Positions 10,115-28,551 of a stretch of DNA of 32,000 nucleotides are shown here, piece by piece. How positions within the stretch are numbered: position 1 is the first letter of the stretch; every line of letters starts with the position of its first letter. The notes below the pieces were generated by a model. That model was not told the DNA's origin, did not search any database, and worked only from the letters and a program-made list of their open reading frames with translations. The DNA lies in contig CP149973.1 of NCBI GenBank assembly GCA_029269845.2, positions 1,950,001 to 1,982,000 of the forward strand, written 5' to 3'. The DNA comes from Opitutia bacterium KCR 482. GTDB lineage: Bacteria; Verrucomicrobiota; Verrucomicrobiia; Opitutales; Intestinicryptomonadaceae. Both the position numbers and the translations under genes were made by a program.

Positions 10115-10133
10115 ACCTTGCAAAAAGACACGC

Positions 10134-10167
10134 AAAAACGCGCCCCGATTTCGGAGCGCGTTTTTTG
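10134..10167. terminator. Rho-independent terminator (A-run / GC stem / T-run)
   Basis: aaaaa-cgcgc-cccgatttcgga-gcgcg-tttttt: stem 10138-10143 / 10156-10161 with an inner cc/gg extension, then T6 at 10161-10166. Confidence 0.6.
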
Positions 10168-10288
10168 TTTGCGCGGAGCGCAGGCCTTGCGCGTTTGCCA
10201 GCGGCTAGGAGTTTGCGAGTGAGCGGTTGCAAGTATCGCAAAACTGCGAAGCCCGACGCGCGTTGCGGCGCACCCTGCGCCCTTGCGG

Positions 10289-11701: not shown

Positions 11702-11752
11702 TTTCGCCGAAATTTCTAAGCCCGATTTCGCGAAAAGTCGAGCGGGATTAGC

Positions 11753-11853
11753 AAAAAAAAACGCGTCGGGCGGGGGCGGACGGATTTTGCGGGTCTTGGA
11801 AGAGCGCGGCGGCGCGGGAAATCCGTGCGGCATTCCGACGTCCCGCCGACGCG
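11753..11853 (-). terminator. Long two-tier hairpin followed by U9 immediately after the SGNH-hydrolase stop codon
   Basis: Outer stem 11762-11774 pairs with 11842-11853 (12 bp plus one bulge). Inner stem acggattt (11780-11787) pairs with aaatccgt (11819-11826). A9 on the plus strand (11753-11761) gives U9 on the minus transcript. Confidence 0.45.
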
Positions 11854-13227
11854 CTATTCCGAAATTTCGAGCGCGTATTTATGCTTTCGCGGAGTGGCGA
11901 TTGCGCGGATTTCCGCGCGGGCATTTTCGCGCTCTTCCCTTAGCAAATTCTCGCGCGGCGCGTGCTCGCGGTAGAGTTGCGCGAGGCGCACATAGTACGG
12001 ATTGTTCCGCGTCCTGCCGATTTCTTCGACGGCGTTTGCCGCGTCGTCCGCCGTCGTGCCGTCTTTGATTTTGTCGGCAAACATTTCGCGCAGGTGGGCG
12101 AGGAAGCGCAGGCGTTCGTTTATGAGCCTGATTTTCTTGCAGAGCGCAAGTATCTTGCGCGAAGCTTCAATCTGCGGGGTTTCGAGCGCGGCGGTGTCGA
12201 TTCCCCTTGCAAGCTCGGCGGAGTGGAAGACGCCGACTTTTTTGCCGTCGATTTTCAGCGCGTATTTTCCGCTCGGCAGATTTTTAACTGCAAGCGTCTG
12301 TTTGTTCAGCGAGCTGCGGAAGTCGATGTATTTTGCCGCGCTTTCCTCCGCGGGCGTCGGCGCAAGCGGCAGCGCGTATTCGAGAGACTCGAAGCGCAGC
12401 CCGCCTGCGCTTTGCTTTACGTTTGAAATTTCGCAGTTTACCGCGCAAATATTTTCCCTGTCGATTTCCGCCGAGCACACCGTCGCCGGTTCTCCGAGCG
12501 ATTTTAGGAATATCGCCGCCATCGCAAACCCTCCCGCTTCGGACGGGTGCACGCGGTCGCTTCCGATTATTGTTTTGCCGCGCCCAGCCTCGCTCTGGAA
12601 GTCGGCGTTTATCCGCACCGTCTCCGCCCAAATATCGACGAATTCCGCGTTGGGAATCCGCCTTGCGGCGTCTTCGCAGATTTTGCCGTAGCGTCCGAGC
12701 CGCGCGTTCAGCCCGACGTGCGAGTCGGTTGGGCTTTCGAGCGTTTCGTCGAAAATCGACGGCGAGAAAATGTAGAGTCTGCGCGAATTTTCCGCAAGCT
12801 TCTCCGCGACTTTCGCGAGCCGTTCTGCGTAGACGCTTTCGAGCCGCGCGATTTCCTCTTCGCACTTCGGGTTTTTCGCCCGCTCTTCGCGCGTGAAATA
12901 TTTTCTGCCGACGTCGTTCATGCCGACCATCAAAACGTAAACGTCGGCTTTGGGTTTGAGTATGTCGGTCCGCATTCGGCGCAGCAGGTGGAAAGCCGAC
13001 TGCCCCGCCGTCCCCCTGTTAAGGTATTGCAGCTCTGTTTCGGGAAAGCGCGTGCTGTAATAATATTCCAAAAACATCTGGTGGTAGCCGTTGTGCGTAA
13101 TGCTGTCGCCGACGAACGCGATTGTCTCGCCCCCGCGCACGGCGACGGGCGCAAGCCTTGTCTGCGCCGAAAGCGCGGCGGCGGCAATTGCCGCAAGAAT
13201 GAGCATGGTAAATTTCATCAAATCCAT
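11854..13227 (-). CDS. Secreted SGNH/GDSL-family hydrolase with an extra C-terminal domain
   Basis: Signal peptide MDLMKFTMLILAAIAAAALSAQ; block I FVGDSITHNG; block III VLMVGMNDV; block V GSDRVHPSEAG. Confidence 0.8.
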   Translation of the reverse strand: MDLMKFTMLILAAIAAAALSAQTRLAPVAVRGGETIAFVGDSITHNGYHQMFLEYYYSTRFPETELQYLNRGTAGQSAFHLLRRMRTDILKPKADVYVLMVGMNDVGRKYFTREERAKNPKCEEEIARLESVYAERLAKVAEKLAENSRRLYIFSPSIFDETLESPTDSHVGLNARLGRYGKICEDAARRIPNAEFVDIWAETVRINADFQSEAGRGKTIIGSDRVHPSEAGGFAMAAIFLKSLGEPATVCSAEIDRENICAVNCEISNVKQSAGGLRFESLEYALPLAPTPAEESAAKYIDFRSSLNKQTLAVKNLPSGKYALKIDGKKVGVFHSAELARGIDTAALETPQIEASRKILALCKKIRLINERLRFLAHLREMFADKIKDGTTADDAANAVEEIGRTRNNPYYVRLAQLYREHAPRENLLREERENARAEIRAIATPRKHKYALEISE

Positions 13228-13353
13228 TCTGCCTTTCCGCCGCTCAGACGCAACGGAATTTTAAGCGTAAAAGTTTGCAATGCCTTTTCACGAATCTCGA
13301 AATTTGCTTGTGAAAACACGCGCCTTGCGGCAAAATGCGCCCGATTTCCGAAA

Positions 13354-15261
13354 ATGAAAAAACTGCCGCCAGAAATACGCATTCTCACCGACGACGTCGC
13401 AAACAAAATCGCGGCGGGCGAGGTTGTCGAACGCCCAGCGGCGGTCGCAAAAGAGCTTCTCGAAAACGCGATAGACGCGGGGGCTACGCGCATCGAAATA
13501 GAATTCAAGCACGGCGGAAAATCGTTCGTGAAAGTTGTGGACGACGGCTGCGGAATGACGCGCCAGCAGGCTCTGACATGTCTCGAACCGCACGCGACAA
13601 GCAAAATCCGCGCGCCCGAAGACCTCTTCAACATTTCAAGCTACGGCTTTCGCGGCGAGGCGGTGCCGTCCATCGCAAGTGTCAGTCGTTTCCGCCTGCG
13701 CACCAGACCCGAAGCGCAGGTCTTGGGCACTGAAATCGACGTCTACGCTGGCAGTGTAAATTCCGTGCGCGACTGCGGCATGGCGGCGGGCACCGAAATC
13801 ACCGTCGAAAACCTTTTCTGCTCCGTCCCTGCGCGGCGGAAATTTTTAAAAAGCGACAACGTCGAGGCGTCGCACATCGTCAAACTTTGCAGGCTCTACG
13901 CGCTCGCCTTGCCCGACCTTTCGATAACGCTTGTCGAAAATTCTCGCACCGTCTTCCGCTCCGAGCGCAATCTCGGCGTGCTCGACAGAATCGAACGCGT
14001 TTTCGGCGCGGAGATTTCGTCAAAGCTTTTCGAACTGCGCCGAAGCGGGCGCGGCGGCATGGCGGTCTCCGGCGCGATACTTCGCGCGGGCGAATCTTTT
14101 CCGACGGGGCGCAACATCTGCGCGTTTATCAACGGCAGACCCGTGGAGTGCAAGGCGGTCTATTCGGCGATAAAGGAGGCGTATTCGCAGTTCGTGCCGA
14201 AGGGCAGGTTCGCGGCGGCGTACCTTTTCATCGAGCTAGACCCGCGCACGGTTGACGTCAACGTGCACCCAGCCAAACGCGAAGTGCGCCTAAAAAACGA
14301 GTTCCAAGTGCGCGACTTTCTCTTTGCGGCGATTTCGTCCGCGCTCGCCGAATCGAACTCGAACCTGCGCGAAAATTTTTCGGCCGAACCCGCCGCCGAA
14401 CCCGAATTTTCCGCGGTTCCGAAGCCCGCGCTTACGCCCGCAAGCGAGGCCGAAATTCCCGCGCCGCGGCTCGGCAATCACGAGACCGCGCAAGCGGCGG
14501 AGCGCGACCCCGCTCCCGCCCGCGGATTTTCAAAACCTCTTTCCGTAGCGGAAAAGCCCGCGTTTTCTCCCGCGGTTTCGGACGAACAAAAACCGCCCGT
14601 TCGCGAAATTCCCGCGCTTGCGCCCGTCGGACGCGGCGTTTCCGAACGCGCAGACGCGCCGCAAAAATCGGCAATAGCAGCAGTCGCCGCAGAGTGGCGC
14701 TACATCGGCTGCCTGAAAAAACGCTTCGCAATTTTCGAGACCGCAAAGGGGCTTGTTCTCATGTCGGTTTCCGCCGCCCTCAAACGCGTCAGATACGAGG
14801 AGATTTTGGCTGGGCTTCGCGGCGGCAAAGTGGTGTCGCAAAACCTGCTGATACCGCTGCCGCTGAAATTCGAGCGCGGCGACGACGAGTATTTCTCGGC
14901 AAACAGAAAGGCGTTCGAAACCTGCGGGTTTGTCGTCGAGGATTTCGGCAAGTCGTTTTACAGAATTTCCGCCGCACCCCTCTGGCTGAAATACGGCGAC
15001 ATCGAAAATTTCGTGCGCGACTTCGTCGAAATTGCGCGTGAGGAAAACCGCGCCCTGCGCAAGTCCGCGCTGTCGGACGAAAATTTCGCGCGGTCGCTCG
15101 TGGTCAGATACGGCGCGGCGGACTTCACATGCACCGAAACCACCGCGACCGAACTTCTGGCAAAACTCCTTTCGGGAAATTCGGGCGCGTCGTCGCCCGA
15201 TGGCAAACCCACGCTCAAAGAAATCTCCGACGCCGAAATCCTGCGCATGTTCCAGATGTAG
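13354..15261 (+). CDS. mutL: DNA mismatch repair protein MutL
   Basis: True start MKKLPPEIRILTDDVANKIAAGEVVERPAAVAKELLENAIDAGATRIEIEF...VVDDGCGM (GHKL ATPase motifs) is at ATG 13354. The track ORF 12547..15261 carries a 269-aa false extension antisense to the SGNH gene. See the finding on degenerate C-terminal endonuclease motifs. Confidence 0.92.
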   Translation: MKKLPPEIRILTDDVANKIAAGEVVERPAAVAKELLENAIDAGATRIEIEFKHGGKSFVKVVDDGCGMTRQQALTCLEPHATSKIRAPEDLFNISSYGFRGEAVPSIASVSRFRLRTRPEAQVLGTEIDVYAGSVNSVRDCGMAAGTEITVENLFCSVPARRKFLKSDNVEASHIVKLCRLYALALPDLSITLVENSRTVFRSERNLGVLDRIERVFGAEISSKLFELRRSGRGGMAVSGAILRAGESFPTGRNICAFINGRPVECKAVYSAIKEAYSQFVPKGRFAAAYLFIELDPRTVDVNVHPAKREVRLKNEFQVRDFLFAAISSALAESNSNLRENFSAEPAAEPEFSAVPKPALTPASEAEIPAPRLGNHETAQAAERDPAPARGFSKPLSVAEKPAFSPAVSDEQKPPVREIPALAPVGRGVSERADAPQKSAIAAVAAEWRYIGCLKKRFAIFETAKGLVLMSVSAALKRVRYEEILAGLRGGKVVSQNLLIPLPLKFERGDDEYFSANRKAFETCGFVVEDFGKSFYRISAAPLWLKYGDIENFVRDFVEIAREENRALRKSALSDENFARSLVVRYGAADFTCTETTATELLAKLLSGNSGASSPDGKPTLKEISDAEILRMFQM

Positions 15262-15322
15262 CGGGCTTGCCGCCGCCGGAATTCTTTCTCCTTTCCAAAA
15301 ATCAGCATAATCAAAAATACAT

Positions 15323-17035
15323 ATGAGAAAACAGAAAATAATTGCGTTTATCGCGCTTTTGTGCGCGGCGTTTCCCGCCTCCGCCGCGGAAATCCGCGTG
15401 TCCGATTTCGGCGCGAAACCCGACGACGGAAAGTGCGACATTTCGGCAATCCGAAAGGCGTTTGCCTATGCCGTTGCCAACAAAGCCACGACCGTGCGCT
15501 TCGACGCCGGCGTCTACGATTTGAATATCGGCGACGCAACTCGTGATATTTTCGAAATCGACGGCGCGGAGAATCTTTCGATAGTCGGTGCTGTCGGCCC
15601 GGACGGCGAGCCGAAGACCGTCTTTTTGCGCAGGTACAAACCCGAAAGAAATCTCTTCGGCGGAAAAATCATCAAAGTGCTGCGCTCTCCGAATCTTTCG
15701 GTCAGGGGAATTGCGTTCGACAATTTTCCGCGCTACATGAGCTGCGGCGAAATCGTCGCAAACGACGGCAGGGGCATTACCGTAAAAGTTTTCGAGGGCA
15801 ACCCGTACCTCGACGGCACATACGCCTACTGCTCCAACCTGTGGGACGGGAAAACGGGAAACCTCGTGGTCGGCAAACCGAGCACGACTTTCGGCACCGA
15901 CGTTGACAGAAATTTGCGCGAGTTCGAAATGAAGAAAATCGGCGCGGAGTCGGAAAGGCTCATGCGCCTCGATTCCCCGAAAGTCGCGCGGACGGCGGCC
16001 GTCGGCGAAGTGTTCTCGTGGAATTTCGGCTGGCGCGGACACCAAATTCTTTTCGAGCGTTGCGACAGCCTGCGCCTCGAAAACGTCGCCGTCAGAAGCT
16101 CGATAGGCTTCTGCATGCTCGCTTTCAAATGCCGCAACATCTACGCAAAAAACGTGGAATTCAGGCGCGAAAAAGGCTCGCGCCAAATGAACGTCGGCAG
16201 CCGCGACGCATGGAAAATCCGCGCATGCCGCGGGCTTGCCGTCGTCGAAAACATGTATGTCGAGGGCGTCAGGTGGGACGGGCAGAACGTCCACGGAACT
16301 TTCGTCTACCCCTACGGAAGAGTCGGCAAAAACGCCCTGCTTATGTCCAACGACTTCGGCGGGCCGACGGGTTCAAACGACGAAGTTTTCGAGGTCGGGA
16401 CAAAGGCCGGCTTCTGGAAAAATAAATCCGAGGAAGTTTTGCTTACGATAAAAAGCGTTCGCAAAAGCGGAACGAAAGTGGGGCGCAATTCGCAACCCGC
16501 ATACGAGGTCGAATTCGTCGAGACTGTCCCAGATTTCGTCGGCGAAACAACCCTCTGCAACCTCTACGGGCTGAATCTCGACTCCTACGTTCTCATTAAT
16601 TCAACGTTCAAAAATATCGCGGGGTGCGCTAGCCTTATCCGCAACGACAACGCAAACATCGCGGGCTGCACTTTCGACCACATCATGTACCCCGCAGTGT
16701 GCGTCGGCGGCGCGATTGCCGAGGTGGAGGGCGTGGTTTCCAAGAACGCGTACATTTGCGGAAACAAGTTCGTCTCTTGCGGCTGGTCGGCTCGCCACGG
16801 CGCGTCGGCGGCGGTCGCCGTGCGCATACAGCCTTCCCAAAAGACTCCGATTGAAACCGCGCCGTATATCGAAAACGTCGTAATCGGCGGCAACGAGTTC
16901 TCGGACTGCAACGTCGGAATAGACGCGGCGGGCGCGGACGGACTCTACATTTCGGGCAACAAATTCGAAAACGTTCGCAAGACAATTTTAGAGCGCAAAA
17001 ATCAAAATGTATTCATAAATAACAATGTTGAATAG
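15323..17035 (+). CDS. Secreted right-handed parallel beta-helix protein (pectate-lyase-superfamily / GH28-related fold)
   Basis: Signal peptide MRKQKIIAFIALLCAAFPASAAE. The N-terminal block IRVSDFGAKPDDGKCDISAIRKAFAYA is typical of Pectate_lyase_3-type proteins. Gly/Asn/Val-rich repeats follow. Confidence 0.8.
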   Translation: MRKQKIIAFIALLCAAFPASAAEIRVSDFGAKPDDGKCDISAIRKAFAYAVANKATTVRFDAGVYDLNIGDATRDIFEIDGAENLSIVGAVGPDGEPKTVFLRRYKPERNLFGGKIIKVLRSPNLSVRGIAFDNFPRYMSCGEIVANDGRGITVKVFEGNPYLDGTYAYCSNLWDGKTGNLVVGKPSTTFGTDVDRNLREFEMKKIGAESERLMRLDSPKVARTAAVGEVFSWNFGWRGHQILFERCDSLRLENVAVRSSIGFCMLAFKCRNIYAKNVEFRREKGSRQMNVGSRDAWKIRACRGLAVVENMYVEGVRWDGQNVHGTFVYPYGRVGKNALLMSNDFGGPTGSNDEVFEVGTKAGFWKNKSEEVLLTIKSVRKSGTKVGRNSQPAYEVEFVETVPDFVGETTLCNLYGLNLDSYVLINSTFKNIAGCASLIRNDNANIAGCTFDHIMYPAVCVGGAIAEVEGVVSKNAYICGNKFVSCGWSARHGASAAVAVRIQPSQKTPIETAPYIENVVIGGNEFSDCNVGIDAAGADGLYISGNKFENVRKTILERKNQNVFINNNVE

Positions 17036-17070
17036 CCTGAATCTGGGCTTTCAGAATCCTGAAAACGCAA

Positions 17071-17112
17071 AAAAAGACGTCCGAACGGAAACTAATTCGG
17101 ACGCCTTTTTTT
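17071..17112 (+). terminator. Rho-independent terminator after the beta-helix gene
   Basis: aaaaaga-cgtccgaa(17078-17085)-cggaaactaa-ttcggacg(17096-17103)-cc-ttttttt. Confidence 0.6.
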
Positions 17113-17287
17113 ATGTCGTCTCACGACGACCGCAACACTACAACAACACTAATACAACTATACACACGCTTTCTATATCGGACAAAATTTTTCCGCTTAA
17201 ACGGATTTTTCAAAACTTTAAAATTTTCCATTCGGGACGATTAGAAAAATACCGCCGACAAGCGCGGATATTAACCGATATAAAAAG

Positions 17288-18571
17288 ATGCAAAATATAA
17301 AAAATAAGTTGTCGTGCTCGGCGGCCGCCGCGGCATGTTTTTCAATCGCGGCGTTCGCGGAGGCGTCCGCAGAACCCCTCCCGTTCGGAAATTTCGGCTT
17401 GGACCAGCTTTCCGAATGCGTCTCGAAATTGCAGTCCGACGTGAAAAACGAAACGGGCTTCAAGCCCTTCTTCGACTACTACGCCGTTCTGCTCACAAAC
17501 CCCTACGGCGGGGCGGAGCAGGGCACCAACTACACCCACGAAATGATTTACGGCATCACCGGAGACCTCGAAAAAGTCGTCGGCTGGAAAGGCGCAACGC
17601 TCGTGGTTTCGGGGGCGTACAATGCGGGCGGAAATCTGTCGAACACGATAGGAAATTTCTTCACGGTCTCGGAGTCGTCGGTGGTTGACGGCGGCATGTT
17701 CTTCGAACTCTATCTGGCGCAGAAAATCGACTTGGCAAACGGCGATTCCGCAACCGTGCGTCTTGGCAGAATCGCGATGGCGGACAGCTTCAACTCGCTC
17801 CCGATTTTCGGCAGCCTCGTAAGCGGCGCGTTCGACTCTACGCCGGCGTCGATGTTCGGCAACAGCCCGTTCACCTCGTCGCCCGTCGCAACTTGGGGCG
17901 CGAGCGTCAAGTACGAAACCGTCGAAAACCTGAGCCTCTGCGCGGGGATTTATCAAATTCCGCAAAACGTGCAGTCTACGACGTGGAGCGGAACCGACTG
18001 GCGCATACAGTCGGACGACGGCTATATGGCGATGTTCCAAATTGCGTGGAACCCGACATTCTGCGCGGAGTCGGACGGCTCAGGCGGACTTTCGGGAACA
18101 TACCAAATCGGCGCATGGTTCTTCGGCGGCTTCGACATGCCGTACCTCGACGGCAGCACTGGTTCGCGCGGCAACGGCTACGGATTCTACGCGCACGGCC
18201 AGCAGCAAATTTGGGCCGAAAGGGATAATCCGAATAAGTACGTTTCGGTTTTCGCGGGCGCGCAGGTCGCGCCGGTAAATTCGATTTCGACAATGCCGCT
18301 AATGCTCTACGGGGGCTTCCAGTTGCAGGGCTTCGTTCCGAAAAGGGAAAACGACGGCTTGTGCGTCGCCTTCGCAAACGGGTGGTTCAGCTACGAACTT
18401 AATAAAGTTCAGGAGGCGACATACGAAAACATGATAGAAATAACATACGTCATGCAATTAAACGAAAATGTATCAATACAGCCAGATTTTCAGTATATAA
18501 TGAGACCCTATGGCAATAGCGGAATCGACGATGCCCTCGTGGTCGGCGGACAACTGATAGTGTCGTTTTAG
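17288..18571 (+). CDS. Carbohydrate-selective porin, OprB family
   Basis: Signal peptide ...AAACFSIAAFAEASAEP. The segments FKPFFDYYAVLLTNPYGGAEQGTNYTHEMIYGITGDLEKVVGWKGATLVVSG and ...QPDFQYIMRPYGN... match the OprB-family pattern. The protein ends in Phe. Confidence 0.8.
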   Translation: MQNIKNKLSCSAAAAACFSIAAFAEASAEPLPFGNFGLDQLSECVSKLQSDVKNETGFKPFFDYYAVLLTNPYGGAEQGTNYTHEMIYGITGDLEKVVGWKGATLVVSGAYNAGGNLSNTIGNFFTVSESSVVDGGMFFELYLAQKIDLANGDSATVRLGRIAMADSFNSLPIFGSLVSGAFDSTPASMFGNSPFTSSPVATWGASVKYETVENLSLCAGIYQIPQNVQSTTWSGTDWRIQSDDGYMAMFQIAWNPTFCAESDGSGGLSGTYQIGAWFFGGFDMPYLDGSTGSRGNGYGFYAHGQQQIWAERDNPNKYVSVFAGAQVAPVNSISTMPLMLYGGFQLQGFVPKRENDGLCVAFANGWFSYELNKVQEATYENMIEITYVMQLNENVSIQPDFQYIMRPYGNSGIDDALVVGGQLIVSF

Positions 18572-18686
18572 CCAGACGGGGGCTGAAAAAGCCCCGCAAC
18601 GAAAGAAGGACACAAACGGATTATAATAACAGAAAGACATTTAAGAGGGCGAGACTGGGAGATGAAAAATTTTTTTAAATTTCGCA

Positions 18687-18714
18687 TTGACAAGCCCTCT
18701 CTAAAATGTATGTT
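18687..18714 (+). promoter_or_regulatory. Possible sigma70-like promoter for tRNA-Asp
   Basis: TTGACA (18687-18692), 16 nt spacer, TATGTT (18709-18714). The predicted start site is ~18 nt upstream of the mature tRNA 5' end. Confidence 0.35.
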
Positions 18715-18739
18715 AAAGGGCATAATATTTTAAACCACT

Positions 18740-18816
18740 GGGGTGGTAGTTCAGTTGGTTAGAACGCCTGCCTGTCACGCAGGAGGTCGCGAGTTCGAGT
18801 CTCGTCCATCCCGCCA
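18740..18816 (+). tRNA. tRNA-Asp (anticodon GTC), CCA encoded
   Basis: GGGGTGG TA GTTC AGTTGGTTA GAAC G CCTGC CTGTCAC GCAGG AGGTC GCGAG TTCGAGT CTCGT CCATCCC G CCA. The cloverleaf folds cleanly and is near-identical in layout to E. coli tRNA-Asp. Confidence 0.95.
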
Positions 18817-18827
18817 CTTTAAAGAAT

Positions 18828-18870
18828 AAAAAAGGCTGATTTGCAGTAAGTTGCGAGTCAGCCTTTTTTT
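18828..18870 (+). terminator. Strong rho-independent terminator downstream of tRNA-Asp
   Basis: An 11-bp stem (18834-18844 pairing with 18853-18863, including two G.U pairs), an 8-nt loop, then T7 (18864-18870), preceded by an A-run. Confidence 0.6.
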
Positions 18871-18880
18871 GTGGCTTTCC

Positions 18881-18912
18881 ATAGCCAAATTTCAACTTGT
18901 TGATAGCCAGAT
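18881..18912 (+). repeat. Two 10-mer direct repeats in the attL arm (possible integrase arm-type or accessory-factor sites)
   Basis: atagccaaat (18881-18890) and atagccagat (18903-18912), 9/10 identical, 22-bp periodicity. A further caactg...caactg pair lies ~50 nt downstream. Confidence 0.3.
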
Positions 18913-19058
18913 TAAAACAATAACCAATTTCCAATAAAACGACAACTGCACGGCAACTGAGTCTGCGCCGAACAAAGTGGCGACACCATTGAACTGCCCC
19001 TTTTGCAGGCAACAGAAAGCCCTTTGCGAGAATCACAAAGGACTTGAGTTCGGAATGT

Positions 19059-20237
19059 TTATTGGGCGTTTACAGTTTCTGGTTTTACATAGTCCGACGG
19101 ATAAATGTTAAAGTATTTCACCGCGTCGTCATGCTTTGCGACGCCCAAATAGTGCTCGAATAAAATATCCGTATGCCTGTGCGATATTATGAGCGCGGTG
19201 TCGGTAAAGTTCCTGTGAAGCGCGACGTGATAGCTCACAAAGCTGTGTCTAAATGCGTTGTGCGGCGGAAACTTTACCTTGTCCGCCAATCCTTTTTTTA
19301 CGTCTTCTGCACTCACTAAAAGTCCTGCCCTGGGATACGCCAATTCTCTGCGTCTTTTAAACTTTCTTTCGCACATTGTAAATGCGCTCGGAGGTGTTCG
19401 TTCCAGCCAAGCCCAAAGGTTGTCTGGAAGATTTTCGATAAACTGGCGGCGGTTCTTCTTTGTCTTTCCCGCAGGCGTTTCTATTCCGCGTTCCTTGAAG
19501 TTGATTTCTTCATACGCCACGCGGGTTATGGCGGAACTTCTCATTCCTGCGAATAGCCCCAACGCCATAAGTCCGCAAATTTCTGGGTCGTAGTTTTCGT
19601 TTGCCCGAAGCAGTTGTTCTACCTCTTCCACTTTCAATATCCCGATTTCACCGCGAACTATGCGCTCTACGGGCAGCTTCACGGCGACATTCTTGCTCAG
19701 CCATTCCCTGTCGTCGAAATACGACCACGCCGCGCGGATTATGTCTTTGTAGTTTGTTTTCGTCTGCCCGCTATATGGCAGTTTGTTTATCCAAGCTACG
19801 AGTTCCTTTCGCGATATGTGGTCCAAGAAAACGTCGCCGAAAGTTTCGCAAAACATTTCGAGAATGCGTCTAACCCTCACGATATGGCTTCTGGGGCGTT
19901 CGGCGTCTTTCAATGCGAATATGTAGCTATTGCAGGCGTCGAACGTCGTGATGAGTTCCCTCGTCTTATGGTTTTCTACCCAGAAATGCCAGATGTCACG
20001 AAATGTTATGTCGTCGCCTTTTGCGGCTTTTATTTGGGCGACTTCGCTAATTTCGGACTTCGTCATTTTAAGCAGGGCTTCAAATTGATACTCCTCCAAG
20101 AAGTCGTATGTTTTGATAAATTCTTCGCGGGCATCGTATGTCTCGAAGAATCTTGCCAATCTTTGTCCGTTTACTCGCCAAGCTACCTTGAACGGAGCTT
20201 TGCGACCTTCACAGTATGATTTTGTAATATGTGCCAT
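19059..20237 (-). CDS. int: Tyrosine site-specific recombinase (phage integrase family)
   Basis: 392 aa. Catalytic signature: Arg in LFAGMRSSAI, H-x-x-R in HNAFRHSFVSYH, His in ISHRHTD and Tyr in LFEHYLG. The gene is adjacent to a tRNA gene. Confidence 0.92.
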   Translation of the reverse strand: MAHITKSYCEGRKAPFKVAWRVNGQRLARFFETYDAREEFIKTYDFLEEYQFEALLKMTKSEISEVAQIKAAKGDDITFRDIWHFWVENHKTRELITTFDACNSYIFALKDAERPRSHIVRVRRILEMFCETFGDVFLDHISRKELVAWINKLPYSGQTKTNYKDIIRAAWSYFDDREWLSKNVAVKLPVERIVRGEIGILKVEEVEQLLRANENYDPEICGLMALGLFAGMRSSAITRVAYEEINFKERGIETPAGKTKKNRRQFIENLPDNLWAWLERTPPSAFTMCERKFKRRRELAYPRAGLLVSAEDVKKGLADKVKFPPHNAFRHSFVSYHVALHRNFTDTALIISHRHTDILFEHYLGVAKHDDAVKYFNIYPSDYVKPETVNAQ

Positions 20238-20246
20238 AGTTCTTAT

Positions 20247-20275
20247 ATTATAAAACTATTTGTTGATATTTACAA
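20247..20275 (-). promoter_or_regulatory. Near-consensus sigma70-like promoter directly upstream of int (predicts an almost leaderless int mRNA)
   Basis: On the minus strand: TTGTAA (complement 20270-20275), 17 nt spacer, TATAAT (complement 20247-20252). The int ATG is at complement(20235..20237), only 9 nt past the -10 hexamer. Confidence 0.45.
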
Positions 20276-20291
20276 GATTATTATAAACAAT

Positions 20292-21347
20292 CTATTGCAA
20301 AATTCCGTCAAAAATCTGGGAGCAAATGCGCGTTGATTTATATTCGCGGGCGGTGATTGGAAAATTTGCCGAAATAACGCCTTCTTTGCAACTAAACGCC
20401 GATTCTGGGAATCCGAAAAAATCCCTGAATTTAGCATTCAAGCGGCTTGTGTATCGCGGCAGATTCCTTGTGTCGTATCCGAGCAAATCCTTTCGCAACG
20501 CGCACGCGCAAACGACCTTCCAGCTGAAACTGACTTCGCTTGTATCGTTGCTTTTGAAAATCGAAATATCCGCATAATGCGCCCTGAGCGACTTTGCGCC
20601 GTAGGCAATTTTTATTTCAGACGGAGAAACTAAATCCATACTAAGCGCGCCAAGCGTCAAATTTGCGGGTGTCGGCAAGTTTGTTCCCTGCCAAGAATAA
20701 AATGCCGTATTGTTTGACCGTTTCGTTCTTGCGGAATGCTGGCGGAACTTACCGCTGTCTTTGAATCCGTCCACGCCGAAATCTATTACCGATTCCAATG
20801 CTACGGTTCTTCCGCGATTTTCGGCGATGAACATTTCCGTTTCGCGGTCGACTTCATCAAAATAAATCACGACTGGGACTTCTCCGTTCAAAACGGACTT
20901 TGTATATTCAATGAACTTCGGCTTCGAGAAATAGAAAAACACTTTCCCCGCCGACGAATTGCCGAGATAAAATCCGTCGCAATCGTATCCACTGAATTTC
21001 CCAAGACTTTTCCCAAGCTGCGAAACATCGTCCGAAATTCCCAGAATCCGCGAGATATGACGCGCGAACGCCGTTTTATTGAACGACACTCGCAATGCGC
21101 CGGTTGCGGACATTTCAAAATAGTCGCCAAACTCGTTTACTGCAACATATCCACTTTGACATTGCGAAACATTGTAGCAAGTTTCACCAATGAAGATTTC
21201 AGAAACGCACTCTCCGTTTGGCGAATATTGCAACGCGCCGACTTTCTCCAAGGACCGTTTCTTCTTTTCGCCAAGCAGTTCGCGCCACTGTAAATTACAA
21301 AGAGGGAGATTTCGCGCCGTTTGCCACCAATATTTCAAGTTCTTCAT
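20292..21347 (-). CDS. Hypothetical protein B (351 aa), second gene of the int-proximal pair; no recognisable domain
   Basis: ATG start at complement(21345..21347), overlapping the end of gene A by 53 nt in another frame. An alternative in-frame TTG at ~21251 would remove the overlap. Composition is protein-like (MKNLKYWWQTARNL...GEVPVVIYFDEVDRETEMFIAENRG...). I found no Walker, HTH, nuclease or TM motif. Confidence 0.7.
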   Translation of the reverse strand: MKNLKYWWQTARNLPLCNLQWRELLGEKKKRSLEKVGALQYSPNGECVSEIFIGETCYNVSQCQSGYVAVNEFGDYFEMSATGALRVSFNKTAFARHISRILGISDDVSQLGKSLGKFSGYDCDGFYLGNSSAGKVFFYFSKPKFIEYTKSVLNGEVPVVIYFDEVDRETEMFIAENRGRTVALESVIDFGVDGFKDSGKFRQHSARTKRSNNTAFYSWQGTNLPTPANLTLGALSMDLVSPSEIKIAYGAKSLRAHYADISIFKSNDTSEVSFSWKVVCACALRKDLLGYDTRNLPRYTSRLNAKFRDFFGFPESAFSCKEGVISANFPITAREYKSTRICSQIFDGILQ

Positions 21348-22458
21348 AAGACATATCCCTTATTAACCCTTTACTTACGAAAAATCTTTCGACGAGTTCT
21401 TCGTCGCAACCTGTCTGAATTTTCGAGCGATACGCATTTGAAATTGTCGCCCTGTATTTCCTGTCAGACCCAATAAACGTGAATTCAAACGTAGCCGAAA
21501 CAATTTCCGAATCGTCGCGTTCCATCGTATCGAAAAACGCGAAGTTCACAAACCCGCTATACGAAAGCCTACATCCGTCTTTGAGTTCTGTATACGCGGC
21601 AACCCTTACCGTTTTTATTTCCGCCGCAAATTCGCCGAGAGCCAATACATCGTAGGATTTCAATTTGCGGAGATTGTATTTGCCGTTAAGAACATACATC
21701 ACTCCGCCGCCCAAGACTTCCGCGAACAGGCTATTGTAGACTTCAGAAAGACGTTTGCTTGTGTAGCGGGTATAAATGGAAAGTTCCCCCGTTTGGTAAT
21801 CGAGGCGCAAAATGTCCATATTCTGCGGATGATAGCGGACAAGCGATTCTTCGTCGCAATCGTTTACGGCGTTTTCGACCCTGATATTTGCTGCATGAAA
21901 TATGCAGTAGTAGGCGAATCTTCCAATCTTATGCGAATGGATTTCCACAAAAGAAAGCCCCGTGTTTGTCTTGAAATACCCGCACAAGAGCATTCGCAAA
22001 CGCTCTACTTGAAAGCCATCAAGCGGCGGCGTTTTTTGAAACTTCGTGGGGCGAAAACTTATATAGTAGTGGGCTTCCTGCGCTGTTTTCAGTGATTCTA
22101 TAATTTGACAATGCCTGTATGTTTTGTCGGCACAAACAAGCTTGAACGCCAACTCATACAAATTGTCGTTCGGGTTTACAGCTACGCCCAATTCGCGCAA
22201 ATGATTCTCCACAAATTCGCGAAGCTCGGGCTTTGCGATAGTATGCAAATGGTATAACTTTTCCCCAATGTCGGCTGGGCAGTTGTCGTAAAGATACTTT
22301 GCAAGCTTGGAATAGTCAAAGCAGGTTTTACCGTGTTCTTCGTTCCAGATTTCAAACTTTTGCAGGGAATCTTTGAGAGAAACGAACAGTAGTTCGTTAT
22401 TTGCAGTCCCCAGCTTCCTCAAAAGCGTGGGCGCAATAAAAGACTTTAATGTAGCCAT
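21295..22458 (-). CDS. Hypothetical protein A (387 aa), first gene of the int-proximal pair; no recognisable domain
   Basis: ATG at complement(22456..22458) with gaaagg 13 nt upstream. Composition is protein-like (MATLKSFIAPTLLRKLGTANNELLFVSLKD...HSHKIGRFAYYCIFHAANIRVENAV...). I do not recognise the family. Confidence 0.75.
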   Translation of the reverse strand: MATLKSFIAPTLLRKLGTANNELLFVSLKDSLQKFEIWNEEHGKTCFDYSKLAKYLYDNCPADIGEKLYHLHTIAKPELREFVENHLRELGVAVNPNDNLYELAFKLVCADKTYRHCQIIESLKTAQEAHYYISFRPTKFQKTPPLDGFQVERLRMLLCGYFKTNTGLSFVEIHSHKIGRFAYYCIFHAANIRVENAVNDCDEESLVRYHPQNMDILRLDYQTGELSIYTRYTSKRLSEVYNSLFAEVLGGGVMYVLNGKYNLRKLKSYDVLALGEFAAEIKTVRVAAYTELKDGCRLSYSGFVNFAFFDTMERDDSEIVSATFEFTFIGSDRKYRATISNAYRSKIQTGCDEELVERFFVSKGLIRDMSYEELEILVANGAKSPSL

Positions 22459-22823
22459 TTTTCATAAGACCTTTCAGTTAATTTTGTAATGTGAGTGGCA
22501 CGAGACCGTGCGTTGTTCTGCTTCGTTGTACTGAATATACCTCGGAACGAAAAAGGAGGTGGTCCTTGCGCCTCGCGGCGCACACACTCTAATCGGCTGA
22601 AAAATGTCCGACAGAGTGGGCAAAGGGTTTCCCCGATTGCCGACATAATCCAAAGGAAGAAAAATCTGTTCCTTTCGATGGTCGCGATTAGGGGATTTTT
22701 TTAGAGCGATTGCAAGAAGTTTTTTCGAAAAATTTATGTCGCTTGTTCGCAAATCAATACACCGCCTTGCTTGGGGAGAAATTCGGGCTTCGATAGGACA
22801 CACCAACCCGAGATTTTTAGCGG

Positions 22824-22854
22824 ATTACACTGTTTTTATTTTTATATTACACTG
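22824..22854. promoter_or_regulatory. Two identical 9-mers ATTACACTG, 22 bp apart, in the divergent control region (operator and/or promoter elements)
   Basis: attacactg at 22824-22832 and 22846-22854, separated by an A/T-only spacer. On the minus strand each copy contains TGTAAT (5/6 match to a -10 hexamer), and TTGTTA lies 16 nt upstream of the first. On the plus strand they read TTACAC-N17-TACACT. Confidence 0.4.
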
Positions 22855-23005
22855 GTTGTTAGAAAGATAACAATAGGACAAAAGTCGGGATATGACTGTC
22901 AGCTTCCATAGTGTGCGATTGCGGTTCTACACAAAAACAAGAACTTCGCGTTTTACCGAAAATCCCAAAATCCGCAAACGCTGACGGGAAACGCACCGAG
23001 AAAAA

Positions 23006-23422
23006 ATGGAAGTAAAACCCGACATCAATTTGGACGAAAGAGTTTCGCGTTTGGAGGATATTATCCGCACGCAAAACGACCTTCTAATCCAGTTGATTGA
23101 GCGTGTCGGTGACACGTTCGCAAAGCAGGCGTTTTCTGTTGAAGAACTTATGGTTAGGTGGGGCTATGAAAAAAGCAGCGTCTACAAAATCATAAACGAA
23201 CACAACCTTACTCTGCTTCGCGGCGCGAACGGCAAGCCGAGAAAACCGATTGCCGTTTTGCGGGCGTCGGTTCTCGATTACGAAAACGGCAGAACGCTTC
23301 AGCCAAAGAACAGGCGCAAGCCGAAACCGATTCCTAATTGGGCGGAACGCCCGTGTTTGCCAAAGCCCGAAATCAAATCCGTTTTTATCGGCAAAGGAGT
23401 TCGACTTGGAGAAATCAGATGA
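23006..23422 (+). CDS. Excisionase/MerR-like helix-turn-helix DNA-binding protein; first gene of the rightward operon (Xis- or Cro-like role possible)
   Basis: 138 aa. An N-terminal coiled-coil-like segment is followed by FSVEELMVRWGYEKSSVYKIINEHNLTLLRG...IAVLRASVLDYE (HTH_17/excisionase-type pattern). The stop overlaps the next ATG (ATGA at 23419-23422). Confidence 0.65.
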   Translation: MEVKPDINLDERVSRLEDIIRTQNDLLIQLIERVGDTFAKQAFSVEELMVRWGYEKSSVYKIINEHNLTLLRGANGKPRKPIAVLRASVLDYENGRTLQPKNRRKPKPIPNWAERPCLPKPEIKSVFIGKGVRLGEIR

Positions 23423-24369
23423 AACATAACTCATTCAAAAAAGCGAATAAAAGCGCGGTTTATCTTAAACTCGCAATTACGGGCCCGAGCGGCTCGGGCA
23501 AAACCACCGCCGCATTGCGCCTTGCGCGCGGACTCGTAGGAGACAACGGCAGAATTGCCGTAATAGATACGGAGAATTCTTCGTCGTTATTGTATGCCGA
23601 TACGTTCGACTTCGACGTATGCGTTGTCGAGCCGCCCTATACCGAAGACAAATTCATAACGGCCATCACCGATGCCGTTGAAAACAAGTATGACTGCGTT
23701 ATCATAGATTCGTTTTCGCACGTTTGGCAGGCTATTTTGGATTACAAAAGCAAGCTCGATATGCGCGGCGGAAATTCCTACACAAACTGGGCGGCGGCAG
23801 GCGGAAAATTTGAAAGCATTTTGCAGGCTGTGCTTTCGTCGAAACTCCACATCATATGCTGTATGCGCTCGAAGATGGACTACGCAATAGACATCGACGA
23901 AAAAGGCAAAAAGTCCATACGTAAAGTCGGGCTTGCCCCAATTATGCGCGACGGAATCGAGTTCGAGTTCTCGCTCGTGTTCGATTTGGATATGAATCAC
24001 AAAGCGGTAGCGTCAAAGGACAGAACGCGAATGTTCGACGGCAATATTTCGGAAATAACCGAAGAAACGGGCAAAATGCTCAACTCTTGGAGGTTTGGGA
24101 ACGCGAAAAATACCGCCCTGCCCGAAGCGGTTGCGGTAGCCGAAAATTCCGACGACGAAATCCCTATGTCGTTTTCTTCCGAGTTGGAATCCGTAATAGG
24201 CACACATTCGCAGGAAGCTAACTTTGCCCTGCGCTCTTGGGGCTGGATTCAACCCGACGAAACATGGAAGAACCTGCGTCCCGACCAAGTCTCGCAAATA
24301 CTGAAAAGACCAAACGAATTTGTGGCAAAAGCCATTGAAGCATTCGAAAGCACACAATCTGAAAAATAG
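23419..24369 (+). CDS. Sak4-like / AAA_24-family RecA-fold ATPase (phage recombination module)
   Basis: Start MKHNSFKK... is at ATG 23419 (the track begins at 23338). Walker A is LAITGPSGSGKTTAALRLA and Walker B is YDCVIIDSFSHVW. The segment CCMRSKMDYAIDIDEKGKKSIRKVGLAPIMRDGIEFEFSLVFDLD is typical of the family. Confidence 0.85.
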   Translation: MKHNSFKKANKSAVYLKLAITGPSGSGKTTAALRLARGLVGDNGRIAVIDTENSSSLLYADTFDFDVCVVEPPYTEDKFITAITDAVENKYDCVIIDSFSHVWQAILDYKSKLDMRGGNSYTNWAAAGGKFESILQAVLSSKLHIICCMRSKMDYAIDIDEKGKKSIRKVGLAPIMRDGIEFEFSLVFDLDMNHKAVASKDRTRMFDGNISEITEETGKMLNSWRFGNAKNTALPEAVAVAENSDDEIPMSFSSELESVIGTHSQEANFALRSWGWIQPDETWKNLRPDQVSQILKRPNEFVAKAIEAFESTQSEK

Positions 24370-27378: not shown

Positions 27379-27450
27379 TGCAGGGTGGTCTAACGGTAGG
27401 ACATCGGGCTCATAACCCGAAGATTGGCGATTCGATTCCGCCCCCTGCAC
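27379..27450 (+). tRNA. Element-encoded tRNA-Met (anticodon CAT) with an initiator-like anticodon arm; no encoded CCA
   Basis: TGCAGGG TG GTCT AACGGTA GGAC A TCGGG CTCATAA CCCGA AGATT GGCGA TTCGATT CCGCC CCCTGCA C. U8, A14, GG, U33 and TTCGA are all present. The anticodon arm is identical to that of E. coli tRNA-fMet. Caveat: the 53:61 pair is an A.C mismatch. The tRNA starts 6 nt after the DUF3102 stop codon. Confidence 0.75.
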
Positions 27451-27495
27451 GCAATTTCACTTGAAACTTCTTATGTTTTTATTCAAAATTAAAGA

Positions 27496-28551
27496 ATGAA
27501 AACGAACATATTTTTAAATTCGTATCAACAACCCGAAAATAAACTTACATATAATTTTTTATCTGTACTTGAATATCTGAACGATAAAAAAATTGTTAAT
27601 TTCCTGACTGGATTAAATGCCGACAAAGAAAAACCTATTGAGAATATTCAAACCGTGTATGGTGGAGGAGAGACAAATCCAGATGGAAGTTTTGATGTCA
27701 TAGCAAATGGCAAGAAAATTACAATATTATATGAAAATAAAACAAATCGCAGAGGATTAAAATCCGAGCAGCTGATTGGACACTTAAGTGGTCGCGACAA
27801 AGATGTTTTACTCTTGGTAACTACGCCACGAATAACAGATAGAAAAATAGTAGATGAAATAAACGATAAAAGAATTATTTTTAAGACTTGGAGCGAATTT
27901 GCTACATTCTTAACGGAAAATTACAAAAATGATTTTATCATTTCTAATTTTGTCGAATATGGAAAACAAAGCGGTGAATTTGAAACATTATGTGAACTTA
28001 ACAGTAAAGATATAAAAATCTTTTGTGACTTTCAAAAATTGAATTTTGATAGAAAAATACGAGAGATTTTTAATACATTTAAGGACTACTTTAATAGTGA
28101 TATTAACAGACTTTATAAAAAGATGGTCTTTTCTTATAAAGATCAATGGGGGAGACGAGGAGCAGAATTTGGGAACGAAAATGAGAATACTTATGGTCAA
28201 TTCGGAGCTTTAGCGTATTATTGGGATACATACGATCACCTGATAAATTTTAAACAAGATAGCATTCCAGAGATAAGTTTCTTTTTTGATGTTCATGAAG
28301 ATAAAAAATCTCTCTTACAGAATGACGAAAATTTTAGAAAAATTGTAAACGATTTAATCTTGCTAGGTTTTGAGAGTAATTTAGACGGGGAATTAACTGA
28401 TAATGTTTGGAGACTTTTAGTTTATAGAAGATCTATAACTTCATTTGATTACCTTACTCCTCAGGTATTGTCATCTTTTGCGAATGAAGTGTTTGAAAGA
28501 CTTATCGCAGTTAAAGCGAACGAACATACATACTTCAAAGAATTGATTTAA
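27496..28551 (+). CDS. AT-rich moron: protein with N-terminal PD-(D/E)xK nuclease-like motif and unknown C-terminal domain (351 aa)
   Basis: An uninterrupted ORF in a region far more AT-rich than its surroundings (sampled 60-nt lines give 18% and 43% GC). Motif layout: E14/E26 in the first helix, P62-D63...D67 (NPDGSFDV), E80-N81-K82 (ILYENKT), then SEQLIGH. That is the order and spacing of the restriction-endonuclease-like fold. Confidence 0.7.
   Translation: MKTNIFLNSYQQPENKLTYNFLSVLEYLNDKKIVNFLTGLNADKEKPIENIQTVYGGGETNPDGSFDVIANGKKITILYENKTNRRGLKSEQLIGHLSGRDKDVLLLVTTPRITDRKIVDEINDKRIIFKTWSEFATFLTENYKNDFIISNFVEYGKQSGEFETLCELNSKDIKIFCDFQKLNFDRKIREIFNTFKDYFNSDINRLYKKMVFSYKDQWGRRGAEFGNENENTYGQFGALAYYWDTYDHLINFKQDSIPEISFFFDVHEDKKSLLQNDENFRKIVNDLILLGFESNLDGELTDNVWRLLVYRRSITSFDYLTPQVLSSFANEVFERLIAVKANEHTYFKELI

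Follow-up and report, generated by a model that had tools for sequence, protein, structure and literature searches.

An overlapping orphan gene pair with a structured leader RNA at the lysogeny-switch position of a Verrucomicrobiota prophage lineage: a possible immunity cassette

The window analysed here, a stretch of 32,000 nt from Opitutia bacterium KCR 482 (contig CP149973.1, positions 1,950,001 to 1,982,000), carries one end of a prophage in which two overlapping leftward genes, hereafter A and B, lie between a tyrosine integrase gene (int) and a divergent early operon. An initial annotation had proposed that they form an accessory conflict module, devoted to defence or exclusion in the lysogen. 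We found instead that A and B look like a core gene pair of a single prophage lineage rather than accessory cargo. Because they are swapped as a cassette together with allele-specific operator-like sites, we tentatively read A and B, with their regulatory DNA and usually a leader RNA, as a non-canonical immunity or lysogeny-control cassette of a temperate-phage lineage of Verrucomicrobiota, a reading to which we assign a probability of about 0.45.

The gene pair, its distribution and its protein families

The genes in question and their flanks are as follows (positions are those of the window).
21295-22458, reverse strand: gene A, 387 amino acids (aa), ATG start, orphan family; supported by the listing of open reading frames (ORFs), homologues and the ratio of nonsynonymous to synonymous substitution rates (dN/dS)
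20292-21347, reverse strand: gene B, 351 aa, ATG start, orphan family; same support
21295-21360, reverse strand: A/B junction, comprising an overlap of 53 nt (21295-21347) and the Shine-Dalgarno (SD)-like sequence AGGGA of B (21356-21360); seen in the sequence and conserved in eight lineages
19059-20237, reverse strand: int, tyrosine integrase gene, the other flank of the cassette; supported by profile matches and a step in guanine-plus-cytosine (GC) content, and 95% conserved across a cassette swap
23006-23422, forward strand: p138, first gene of the divergent early operon, encoding a conserved protein of 138 aa with a coiled coil and a segment resembling a helix-turn-helix (HTH)
18740-18816: tRNA-Asp gene, attachment site (att) and end of the prophage

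The ORF listing reproduced exactly the two leftward ATG-initiated frames of 387 and 351 aa with their 53-nt overlap, as well as their reported orientation, which is that of int (19059-20237, reverse strand) and divergent from the p138/AAA_24/DUF669 operon that starts at 23006 on the forward strand. Homologues at 19-94% identity, together with dN/dS values of 0.10-0.18 for A and 0.16-0.21 for B (three close relatives, 93-95% nucleotide identity, dS 0.15-0.27), establish that both are real genes and not chance ORFs. In the same comparison, dN/dS of int was 0.01-0.03 at similar dS.

In the window, B is read in the +1 frame relative to A. This frame was found in each of the eight lineages analysed, along with a homologous ATG or GTG start of B and an AGGGA or AGGA SD located 9-13 nt upstream, which is embedded, as in the window, in the conserved G-[LI]-x-[RK]-[DN] motif of A. 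Overlap length is 50-53 nt throughout the main lineages, whereas three distant branches have about 32-38 nt. The retention of overlap, frame and SD supports the view that two partner proteins are probably synthesized in a coupled fashion, and the description of A and B as one coupled two-gene unit was supported. A programmed frameshift producing an A-B fusion was set aside, as it would need a +1 shift and B has a conserved start and SD of its own; no slippery motif was evident in the A/B overlap sequences. In one related locus (L042, 8907-10032), the A-like gene is split into ORFs of 280 and 101 aa next to an intact B, reflecting either an assembly error or a decaying allele.

About 45 related loci (designated by L numbers) were gathered with A, B, the leader-RNA motif or the neighbouring p138 as the point of entry, the last of these avoiding ascertainment bias. 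A and B are adjacent in all of them, down to B identities of about 19-22%, and in all retrieved contexts an A-like gene of 379-410 aa is directly followed by a B-like gene of 335-381 aa. In every informative locus, the unit adjoins a tyrosine integrase gene and a p138-led early operon, and the slot is never empty and never filled by an unrelated system. The 23 stretches retrieved from viral and metagenome collections by exact match to the leader motif all precede an A/B pair, except for the uninformative L029, whose contig ends at the motif. The usual order is the early operon reading outward on one side, A followed by B reading away from it, then int in either orientation. Two loci depart from it: in L044, int lies between the divergent early operon and A, upstream of A and B and codirectional with them, and in L050 int, A, B and p138 follow one another in the same direction, with further sequence between int and A. 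The initial placement of the pair in the lysogeny slot was supported, and in the window the pair occupies the cI position, between int and a divergent early operon.

A and B were never found outside this lineage. A single genome matched among 185,579 species representatives, an Opitutia (Verrucomicrobiota) metagenome-assembled genome; many other A/B loci came from human-gut metagenomes. Neither the 50,697 phage records nor the 72,556 plasmids searched with tblastn, all of them deposited sequences, contained a match. The A family amounts to 12 clusters in a collection of 5.8 billion sequences, even with a profile query, and an exhaustive HMMER search recovered 21 representative clusters of B among 1.84 billion sequences, nearly all of them full-length (335-381 aa). 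Families this small, with B clusters that are almost only full-length, indicate that there is no domain common to a larger family.

The initial failure to recognise a motif or family in either protein was borne out at the level of profile libraries, with relatives included. A, B and 7-18 diverse relatives gave no credible match in Pfam, NCBIfam, PHROGs or PADLOC, and profile searches of A and B against PDB sequences gave none either. No HTH family was detected at E<=0.1-1 in A, B or the 7-18 diverse members, Peptidase_S24 matched neither A nor B, and B lacks an invariant Ser/Lys. PADLOC-DB v2 held no family for A or B, with scattered single-member matches at E>=0.0027 among 18 B relatives, and no description of the A/B module was found in the literature. 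Profile-profile comparison ruled out that A and B are paralogues.

Conserved residues set the two proteins apart. In alignments of A reaching down to 21% identity, H188, D215 and Y241 are invariant and H176, C185, P211, R218, E225 and K260 nearly so. The resulting polar constellation, H-x8-C-x2-H ... D-[IV]-x-[RK] ... E ... K, is suggestive of a centre for metal binding or catalysis. In alignments of B that extend to 18% identity, the only invariants are hydrophobic or structural (P158, F264, W276, F311 and F329), and B proteins are mostly basic (pI 8-9), a pattern more in keeping with a role in binding or scaffolding than with catalysis. AlphaFold2 models obtained from shallow alignments were of low confidence, the predicted local distance difference test score (pLDDT) and predicted template modelling (TM) score (pTM) being 52.8 and 0.51 for A, and 41.6 and 0.27 for B, and a Foldseek search with the A model against PDB and BFVD gave only matches with TM<0.25. 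In that low-confidence model, D215 and E225 of A lie on adjacent predicted strands. Membership of A in the PD-(D/E)xK superfamily is unproven: the motif is E225-x-S, with Ser, Val or Leu at the third position where the canonical lysine is missing and K260 following 35 residues later, the PDDEXK profile did not match A, and no fold can be matched with so weak a model.

These observations bear directly on superinfection exclusion or anti-phage defence, in which A would act as a nuclease-like or metal-dependent effector and B as a sensor or specificity subunit, blocking incoming and especially related phages, with the alleles as products of an arms race. The pair adjoins the integrase gene as a likely lysogen-expressed unit, A and B evolve quickly and their alleles are replaced, and A has a catalytic-looking polar constellation with D215 and E225 placed as described. 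Coupled two-gene architecture, such as that of A and B, is common among defence systems. However, every relative found has A and B obligately paired and overlapping, and all come from a single phage lineage, in which the pair keeps a fixed core position. The initial annotation had itself named such a restriction as refuting, and the accessory-defence reading is weakened by it. Unlike known hotspots, the slot is in none of the roughly 45 loci without the pair or occupied by an unrelated system, some 20 family members gave no PADLOC match, the GC content of A and B equals that of the rest of the prophage, and multiple allele-specific sites abut the leader of the early operon (see below).

Furthermore, the recognisable defence genes of the lineage reside in a separate variable slot, between int and the att tRNA gene. 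In L041, the interval between int and a tRNA-Ser gene (9381-17579) encodes a Mokosh MkoA-like helicase (E = 1.6e-47) as well as PDC-S41, AbiO/Nhi-like, TPR and MazG-like proteins, and the cargo of L008-L012 includes an N6_Mtase/Eco57I/TaqI_C protein (L008, 13579-16178). The int-att slot holds nothing in the window and in L003. Taken together, defence cargo is not supported as the role of A and B, and we consider a function in defence or exclusion rather unlikely. The variable cargo of the lineage further includes the stretches L019 4566-8656 and L031 6994-10140, with three extra ORFs between B and int in L031.

Cassette exchange and allele-specific operator-like sites

The gap of 547 nt between A and p138 contains the following features, beside the leader RNA described in the next section.
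22913-23005, forward strand: p138-proximal conserved segment, the 5' untranslated region (UTR) of p138, whose inner end is the cassette recombination junction
22793-22901, no strand assigned: operator-like site cluster around the AT-rich promoter core of the intergenic region
22793-22800 and 22873-22880: two copies of TGTCCTAT, bracketing the CAGTGTAAT pair
22824-22832 and 22846-22854: two copies of CAGTGTAAT, inside the TGTCCTAT pair
22893-22901: palindrome TGAC-A-GTCA
22687-22715, reverse strand: putative A/B promoter, with -35 TTGCAA (22710-22715), a 17-nt spacer and -10 CCTAAT (22687-22692)

A and B diverge about twice as much as int and p138 in amino-acid identity, with the same rank order as their neighbours. 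Relative to the window, identities in L001 are 49% for A and 43% for B (int, 74%, p138, 76%), and those in L008 are 28% and 31%, respectively (int, 56%, p138, 59%). Such fast evolution under purifying selection is as expected for specificity determinants.

Comparison of closely related phages revealed that the pair is exchanged as a block. L041 and L007/L019 share 96.8% DNA identity over 5,575 bp, covering the early operon, p138 and the first 93-103 or so intergenic nucleotides, and their int genes are 95% identical. Between these regions, BLAST detected no DNA similarity of L041 5576-8086 to L007/L019. This unlike segment takes in A and B, the promoters and sites of the intergenic region and, in alleles that have one, the leader; the swapped A/B alleles are only about 20-27% identical. 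L047 carries a third allele in the same background, with a p138 96% identical to that of L007. All three alleles (L007-type, L041 and L047) diverge at one common junction, '...GCGCCGCAC', which places p138 at the flank of the cassette, outside the swapped unit. The p138-proximal segment (about 93-103 nt, alignment columns 1-103) is strongly conserved across the lineage, its roughly 103 nt being identical in L047, L049 and L041, and in some lineages the p138 5' UTR carries a GAGTTC...GAACTC hairpin.

The exchange also argues against a housekeeping enzyme pair serving the DNA transactions of the element, whether a nuclease or modification enzyme with its partner or an integration/excision factor. 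Although linkage to int persists through three gene orders and the conserved core of A is polar, int stays 95% identical while A and B are replaced by an allele of about 20-27% identity, so that the pair does not co-evolve with int. No nuclease, methylase or recombination directionality factor (RDF) family matched, and the E225-x-S motif lacks the lysine of (D/E)xK. We judge this explanation very unlikely, and an integrase accessory factor or RDF in particular was set aside, as int does not co-vary with A/B.

In the window, TGTCCTAT and CAGTGTAAT occur nowhere else in the 32 kb, for chance expectations of 0.17 and 0.07 copies, respectively. Each allele has its own set of three to four copies of an 8-13-nt site; the copies, some direct and some inverted, extend over about 100-120 nt around the AT-rich core, and the innermost abuts the conserved p138 leader. 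The sites are GGGTACA in L047 (four copies, including the perfect palindrome GGGTAC-A-GTACCC) and (G/A)GGGACA in L049/L007, and L041 contains neither of these motifs. Site sequence follows the A/B allele and not the neighbouring p138, which is at least 96% identical among the alleles compared. Within the inspected DNA of these isogenic phages (early operon, p138 and integrase), A and B are the only genes that differ. Since only these genes and the sites differ, the most economical reading is that an allele-specific DNA-binding activity, supplied by A and/or B, acts at the divergent promoters, which would amount to an immunity function. L044 was considered as a case of shared operators at two promoters and set aside, its repeats being AT-rich and ambiguous.

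The A/B promoter at 22687-22715 is putative: in the window it scores under the consensus-scan threshold, and other loci have a TTGAC box conserved at its alignment position.

A structured leader RNA upstream of A

Two features make up the leader between the putative promoter and A.
22521-22652, reverse strand: structured leader RNA, 132 nt; supported by alignments, RNAalifold, covariation and a covariance-model match of 119 bits
22459-22520, reverse strand: 3' part of the leader, with a hairpin GCACG-GUCU-CGUGC (22498-22511) and the SD of A, GAAAGG (22470-22475)

The initial annotation had described a structured leader of about 370 nt. A structured RNA is indeed present, but its covariation-supported part spans 132 nt and the whole leader would be about 220 nt long, if the promoter with conserved TTGCAA and its -10 box is real. 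The 132-nt RNA is the most conserved sequence of the locus, above any protein. RNAalifold predicts a stem P0 that closes a junction of P1 (GNRA loop), P2 (variable length) and P3 (GNRA loop). In the alignment, 97.3% of cells are paired, a share that falls to 21-46% once the partners are slid; double compensatory changes occur in six pairs, and none of 500 shuffles reached the covariation score. The junction is followed by an invariant 3' domain, GACCACCUCCUUUUUCGUUCCGAGGUAU..AACGAA, that can form P4 (ACCUC/GAGGU), while P5 (UUCGUU/AACGAA) is interleaved with P4 in a possible H-type pseudoknot. P4 and P5 are fully pairable yet invariant, and covariation gives no proof of them. Within P4, CACCUCCUU resembles the 3' end of 16S rRNA, i.e. 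the anti-SD sequence.

The AAAGG that precedes the ATG of A is conserved in the alignment. The 232-nt leader of the window folds with z = -3.2, and in the minimum-free-energy fold the SD region of A pairs with a GACC stretch lying just 5' of the anti-SD-like segment. The leader fold may thus occlude the SD of A, and we infer that the RNA is a cis-acting element of translational control. A small ORF hidden in the leader was set aside, no start codon or ORF being conserved. In one metagenomic variant (L026, 4408-4574), the P2-P3 part of the leader is partially duplicated in tandem.

The covariance model matched upstream of A in most alleles at 52-140 bits, matches cut by contig ends included, and more weakly in L044 (35 bits) and L050 (26 bits). 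It found no RNA in the L039-L043 alleles, in which the intergenic region measures only about 270-290 nt. The leader RNA is therefore dispensable for the function of A/B as such. As its 3' domain is invariant while the proteins vary, what the RNA reads is probably not A/B but something on the host side, be it the ribosome, an RNase or a ligand.

A leader of this kind followed by two overlapping coupled genes at the switch region could also point to a decision or induction module that is not itself the repressor, for instance an RNA-controlled sensor/antirepressor pair comparable in its logic to P1 immI (c4 RNA, icd, ant) or to arbitrium-type sensors, the true repressor being p138 or lying elsewhere. 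The host-side signal or machinery suggested by the invariant 3' domain, and the sensor- or enzyme-like centre conserved in A, would suit this role. However, neither Rfam C4 nor any other Rfam family matched (no hit at E<=1 in 22459-23005, in a cmscan of 18000-24000), A/B persist in the L039-L043 alleles devoid of the RNA, no other repressor candidate was seen, and the allele-specific DNA sites imply a DNA-binding activity encoded by the allele, which an antirepressor would not need. This makes such a module distinctly unlikely in our estimation.

The same architecture recalls an addiction module, in which A and B would stabilise the prophage in the manner of a toxin-antitoxin system and the leader RNA could be a type III-like antitoxin. 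A coupled gene pair that is always present in the element, behind a structured and possibly pseudoknotted RNA, would be in keeping with such a system. Nevertheless, A and B are far larger than typical toxin-antitoxin components, no toxin-antitoxin, Abi or ToxN/AbiQ-like family matched, and the RNA is single-copy, with no tandem array, and dispensable in some alleles. We hold this explanation to be highly improbable.

The immunity reading, the rest of the prophage and known systems

Several observations support the reading of A/B as an immunity cassette: a universal fixed position in a cI-like place, cassette exchange, sites that follow the allele, evolutionary rate, native GC content, coupling of the two genes and the pattern of conserved residues. 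In the mechanism that we propose, transcription of A and B in the lysogen would run leftward from a promoter within the AT-rich core between A and p138; the conserved overlap of 50-53 nt would couple their synthesis, and the two proteins would form a heteromeric regulator. One of the proteins, more likely the basic and non-enzymatic-looking B, would bind the three to four allele-specific sites of 8-13 nt that bracket the divergent promoters, thereby keeping the early (p138/replication) operon off and perhaps also autoregulating A/B. The leader of about 220 nt, with its anti-SD-like segment, would tune translation of A, and the His/Cys/His/Asp/Glu/Lys centre of A could serve in sensing, metal binding or catalysis, e.g. 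for induction. Alleles would set immunity specificities, which recombination at the conserved junctions would swap. The analysis shows that the genes are real and paired, that their position is fixed, that the cassette is exchanged, that the sites co-vary with the A/B allele and that the RNA is structured; DNA binding by A/B, repression of the early promoter, occlusion of the SD and the division of roles between A and B are the inferred parts of this scheme.

A number of points weigh against this interpretation. Profile searches detect no DNA-binding domain in A or B, a repressor made up of two proteins of about 350-390 aa would be unusual, and the low-confidence models (pLDDT 53 and 42) give no fold support. 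The conserved H/C/H/D/E/K of A looks like an enzyme or metal centre, which would be superfluous for a simple repressor. Furthermore, the sites lie between A and the junction, so that their exchange along with A/B could partly reflect physical linkage, and the cassette is not divergent from the early operon in L044 and L050. Lastly, neither the prophage part of the window nor the Pfam tables for related loci revealed an HTH_3/S24-type repressor, which speaks for the immunity reading, but only 10-20 kb were inspected per phage and a canonical repressor could lie elsewhere in the genome.

A bolder version of the immunity reading, which we find somewhat improbable, is that A/B is a new type of switch, namely a heteromeric pair of proteins of unrecognised fold that carries immunity specificity, one of them bearing a conserved His/Cys/His/Asp/Glu metal or catalytic centre, with its synthesis gated by an undescribed riboswitch-like or ribosome-mimicking leader with an invariant anti-SD/SD pseudoknot domain. 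If so, these phages of gut Verrucomicrobiota would read their lysis-lysogeny decision from a host metabolite or from the translational state of the host, and not through RecA-mediated cleavage of a CI-type repressor.

If A/B acts in immunity, this would identify the immunity determinant of a prophage lineage that is widespread in human-gut and other Verrucomicrobiota and has no recognisable repressor, and give a role to two new protein families without detectable relatives. The three A/B alleles found in isogenic backgrounds, with their different operator-like sites, constitute natural experiments for heteroimmunity and DNA-recognition specificity. The locus also brings to light a leader RNA that is unclassified, supported by covariation and endowed with an invariant domain resembling the anti-SD. 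For the mining of defence islands, it calls for caution: an integrase-proximal, fast-evolving and unannotated pair is not necessarily a defence system, and in this lineage the real hotspot is the int-att slot.

At the prophage end, near 18.5 kb, the GC content of the window falls from about 56% to about 45%, and the element appears to be a full prophage, with terminase-like, MuF and DUF3102 genes. The product of p138 has no significant Pfam, PDB or PHROG match and may play a Cro/Xis-like role. In the early operon, p138 is followed by genes for an AAA_24/Sak4-like ATPase, a DUF669 protein, a DUF6291 protein and a DnaC-like ATPase. The AAA_24/Sak4-like and DUF669 genes (23338-24369) have no tblastn counterpart at E<=1e-3 in most of L001-L015, although loci without a counterpart of the window-type AAA_24 gene still have an AAA_24 protein gene of their own. 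This makes the replication module a mosaic, while int, B, A and p138 travel together. Further along (27379-28551, forward strand), a phage-borne tRNA-Met gene (27379-27450), also present in L008 and L020, precedes an ORF of 351 aa (27496-28551) within a 30%-GC island. This ORF has no Pfam or PADLOC match and, being compositionally foreign, is a stronger candidate than A/B for a moron or for defence cargo. A sub-threshold match to the Rfam algC RNA motif (28.3 bits against a gathering threshold of 33.8, E = 0.0098) in the interval that separates tRNA-Asp from the end of int (18995-19046, reverse strand) is probably due to chance or to att-region sequence.

By its sequence, A/B belongs neither to the CI/LexA-type repressors, nor to any PADLOC system, to Rfam C4 or to type III toxin-antitoxin systems. 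ToxIN-like systems of the latter type have RNA repeats arrayed in tandem ahead of a small endoribonuclease toxin; the A/B leader lacks such an array, and the A and B proteins, of 351-387 aa, gave no ToxN/AbiQ-like match. Prophage defence hotspots (P2/P4, integrase-proximal islands) likewise lie near an integrase gene and have their content replaced between near-identical phages; however, they hold unrelated systems or stay empty, whereas the A/B slot always holds a pair of this family.

Three regulatory systems come closer. The Stl master repressors of Staphylococcus aureus pathogenicity islands (SaPIs) and phage-inducible chromosomal islands are, like A/B, encoded next to int, divergent from the early/replication operon and extremely divergent between elements, and they combine DNA binding with sensing, as we propose for A/B. 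In contrast, Stl consists of one protein, whose N-terminal HTH can be recognised, and is encoded by a satellite, whereas A and B are two coupled proteins with no detectable HTH in what appears to be a full prophage. The immI region of P1/P7 (c4 antisense RNA, icd, ant) also consists of a structured leader RNA followed by two overlapping coupled genes. The A/B leader, however, has no Rfam C4 match, includes an invariant domain that resembles the anti-SD, and does not occur in every allele, and A and B have no sequence similarity to Icd and Ant and differ greatly from them in size. Moreover, immI encodes an antirepressor, whereas the allele-specific sites of A/B suggest a DNA-binding regulator.

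The lambdoid imm regions (imm-lambda, imm434 and imm21, each comprising cI, operators and cro) share the most with the A/B cassette. They too occupy, as a discrete block, the lysogeny switch that lies between integration genes and early operon; the block is swapped between near-identical phages at conserved junctions and contains its own promoters, several allele-specific repeated or palindromic sites and leftward genes divergent from the early operon. They differ in that binding and repression by A/B are putative, that two overlapping orphan proteins of 350-390 aa stand in place of an HTH or S24 protein, that p138, in the position of Cro, lies outside the swapped unit, and that A/B has a structured leader RNA. 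The A/B cassette would most resemble the lambdoid imm regions in its logic, P1 immI in its layout, and SaPI Stl in its position and divergence.

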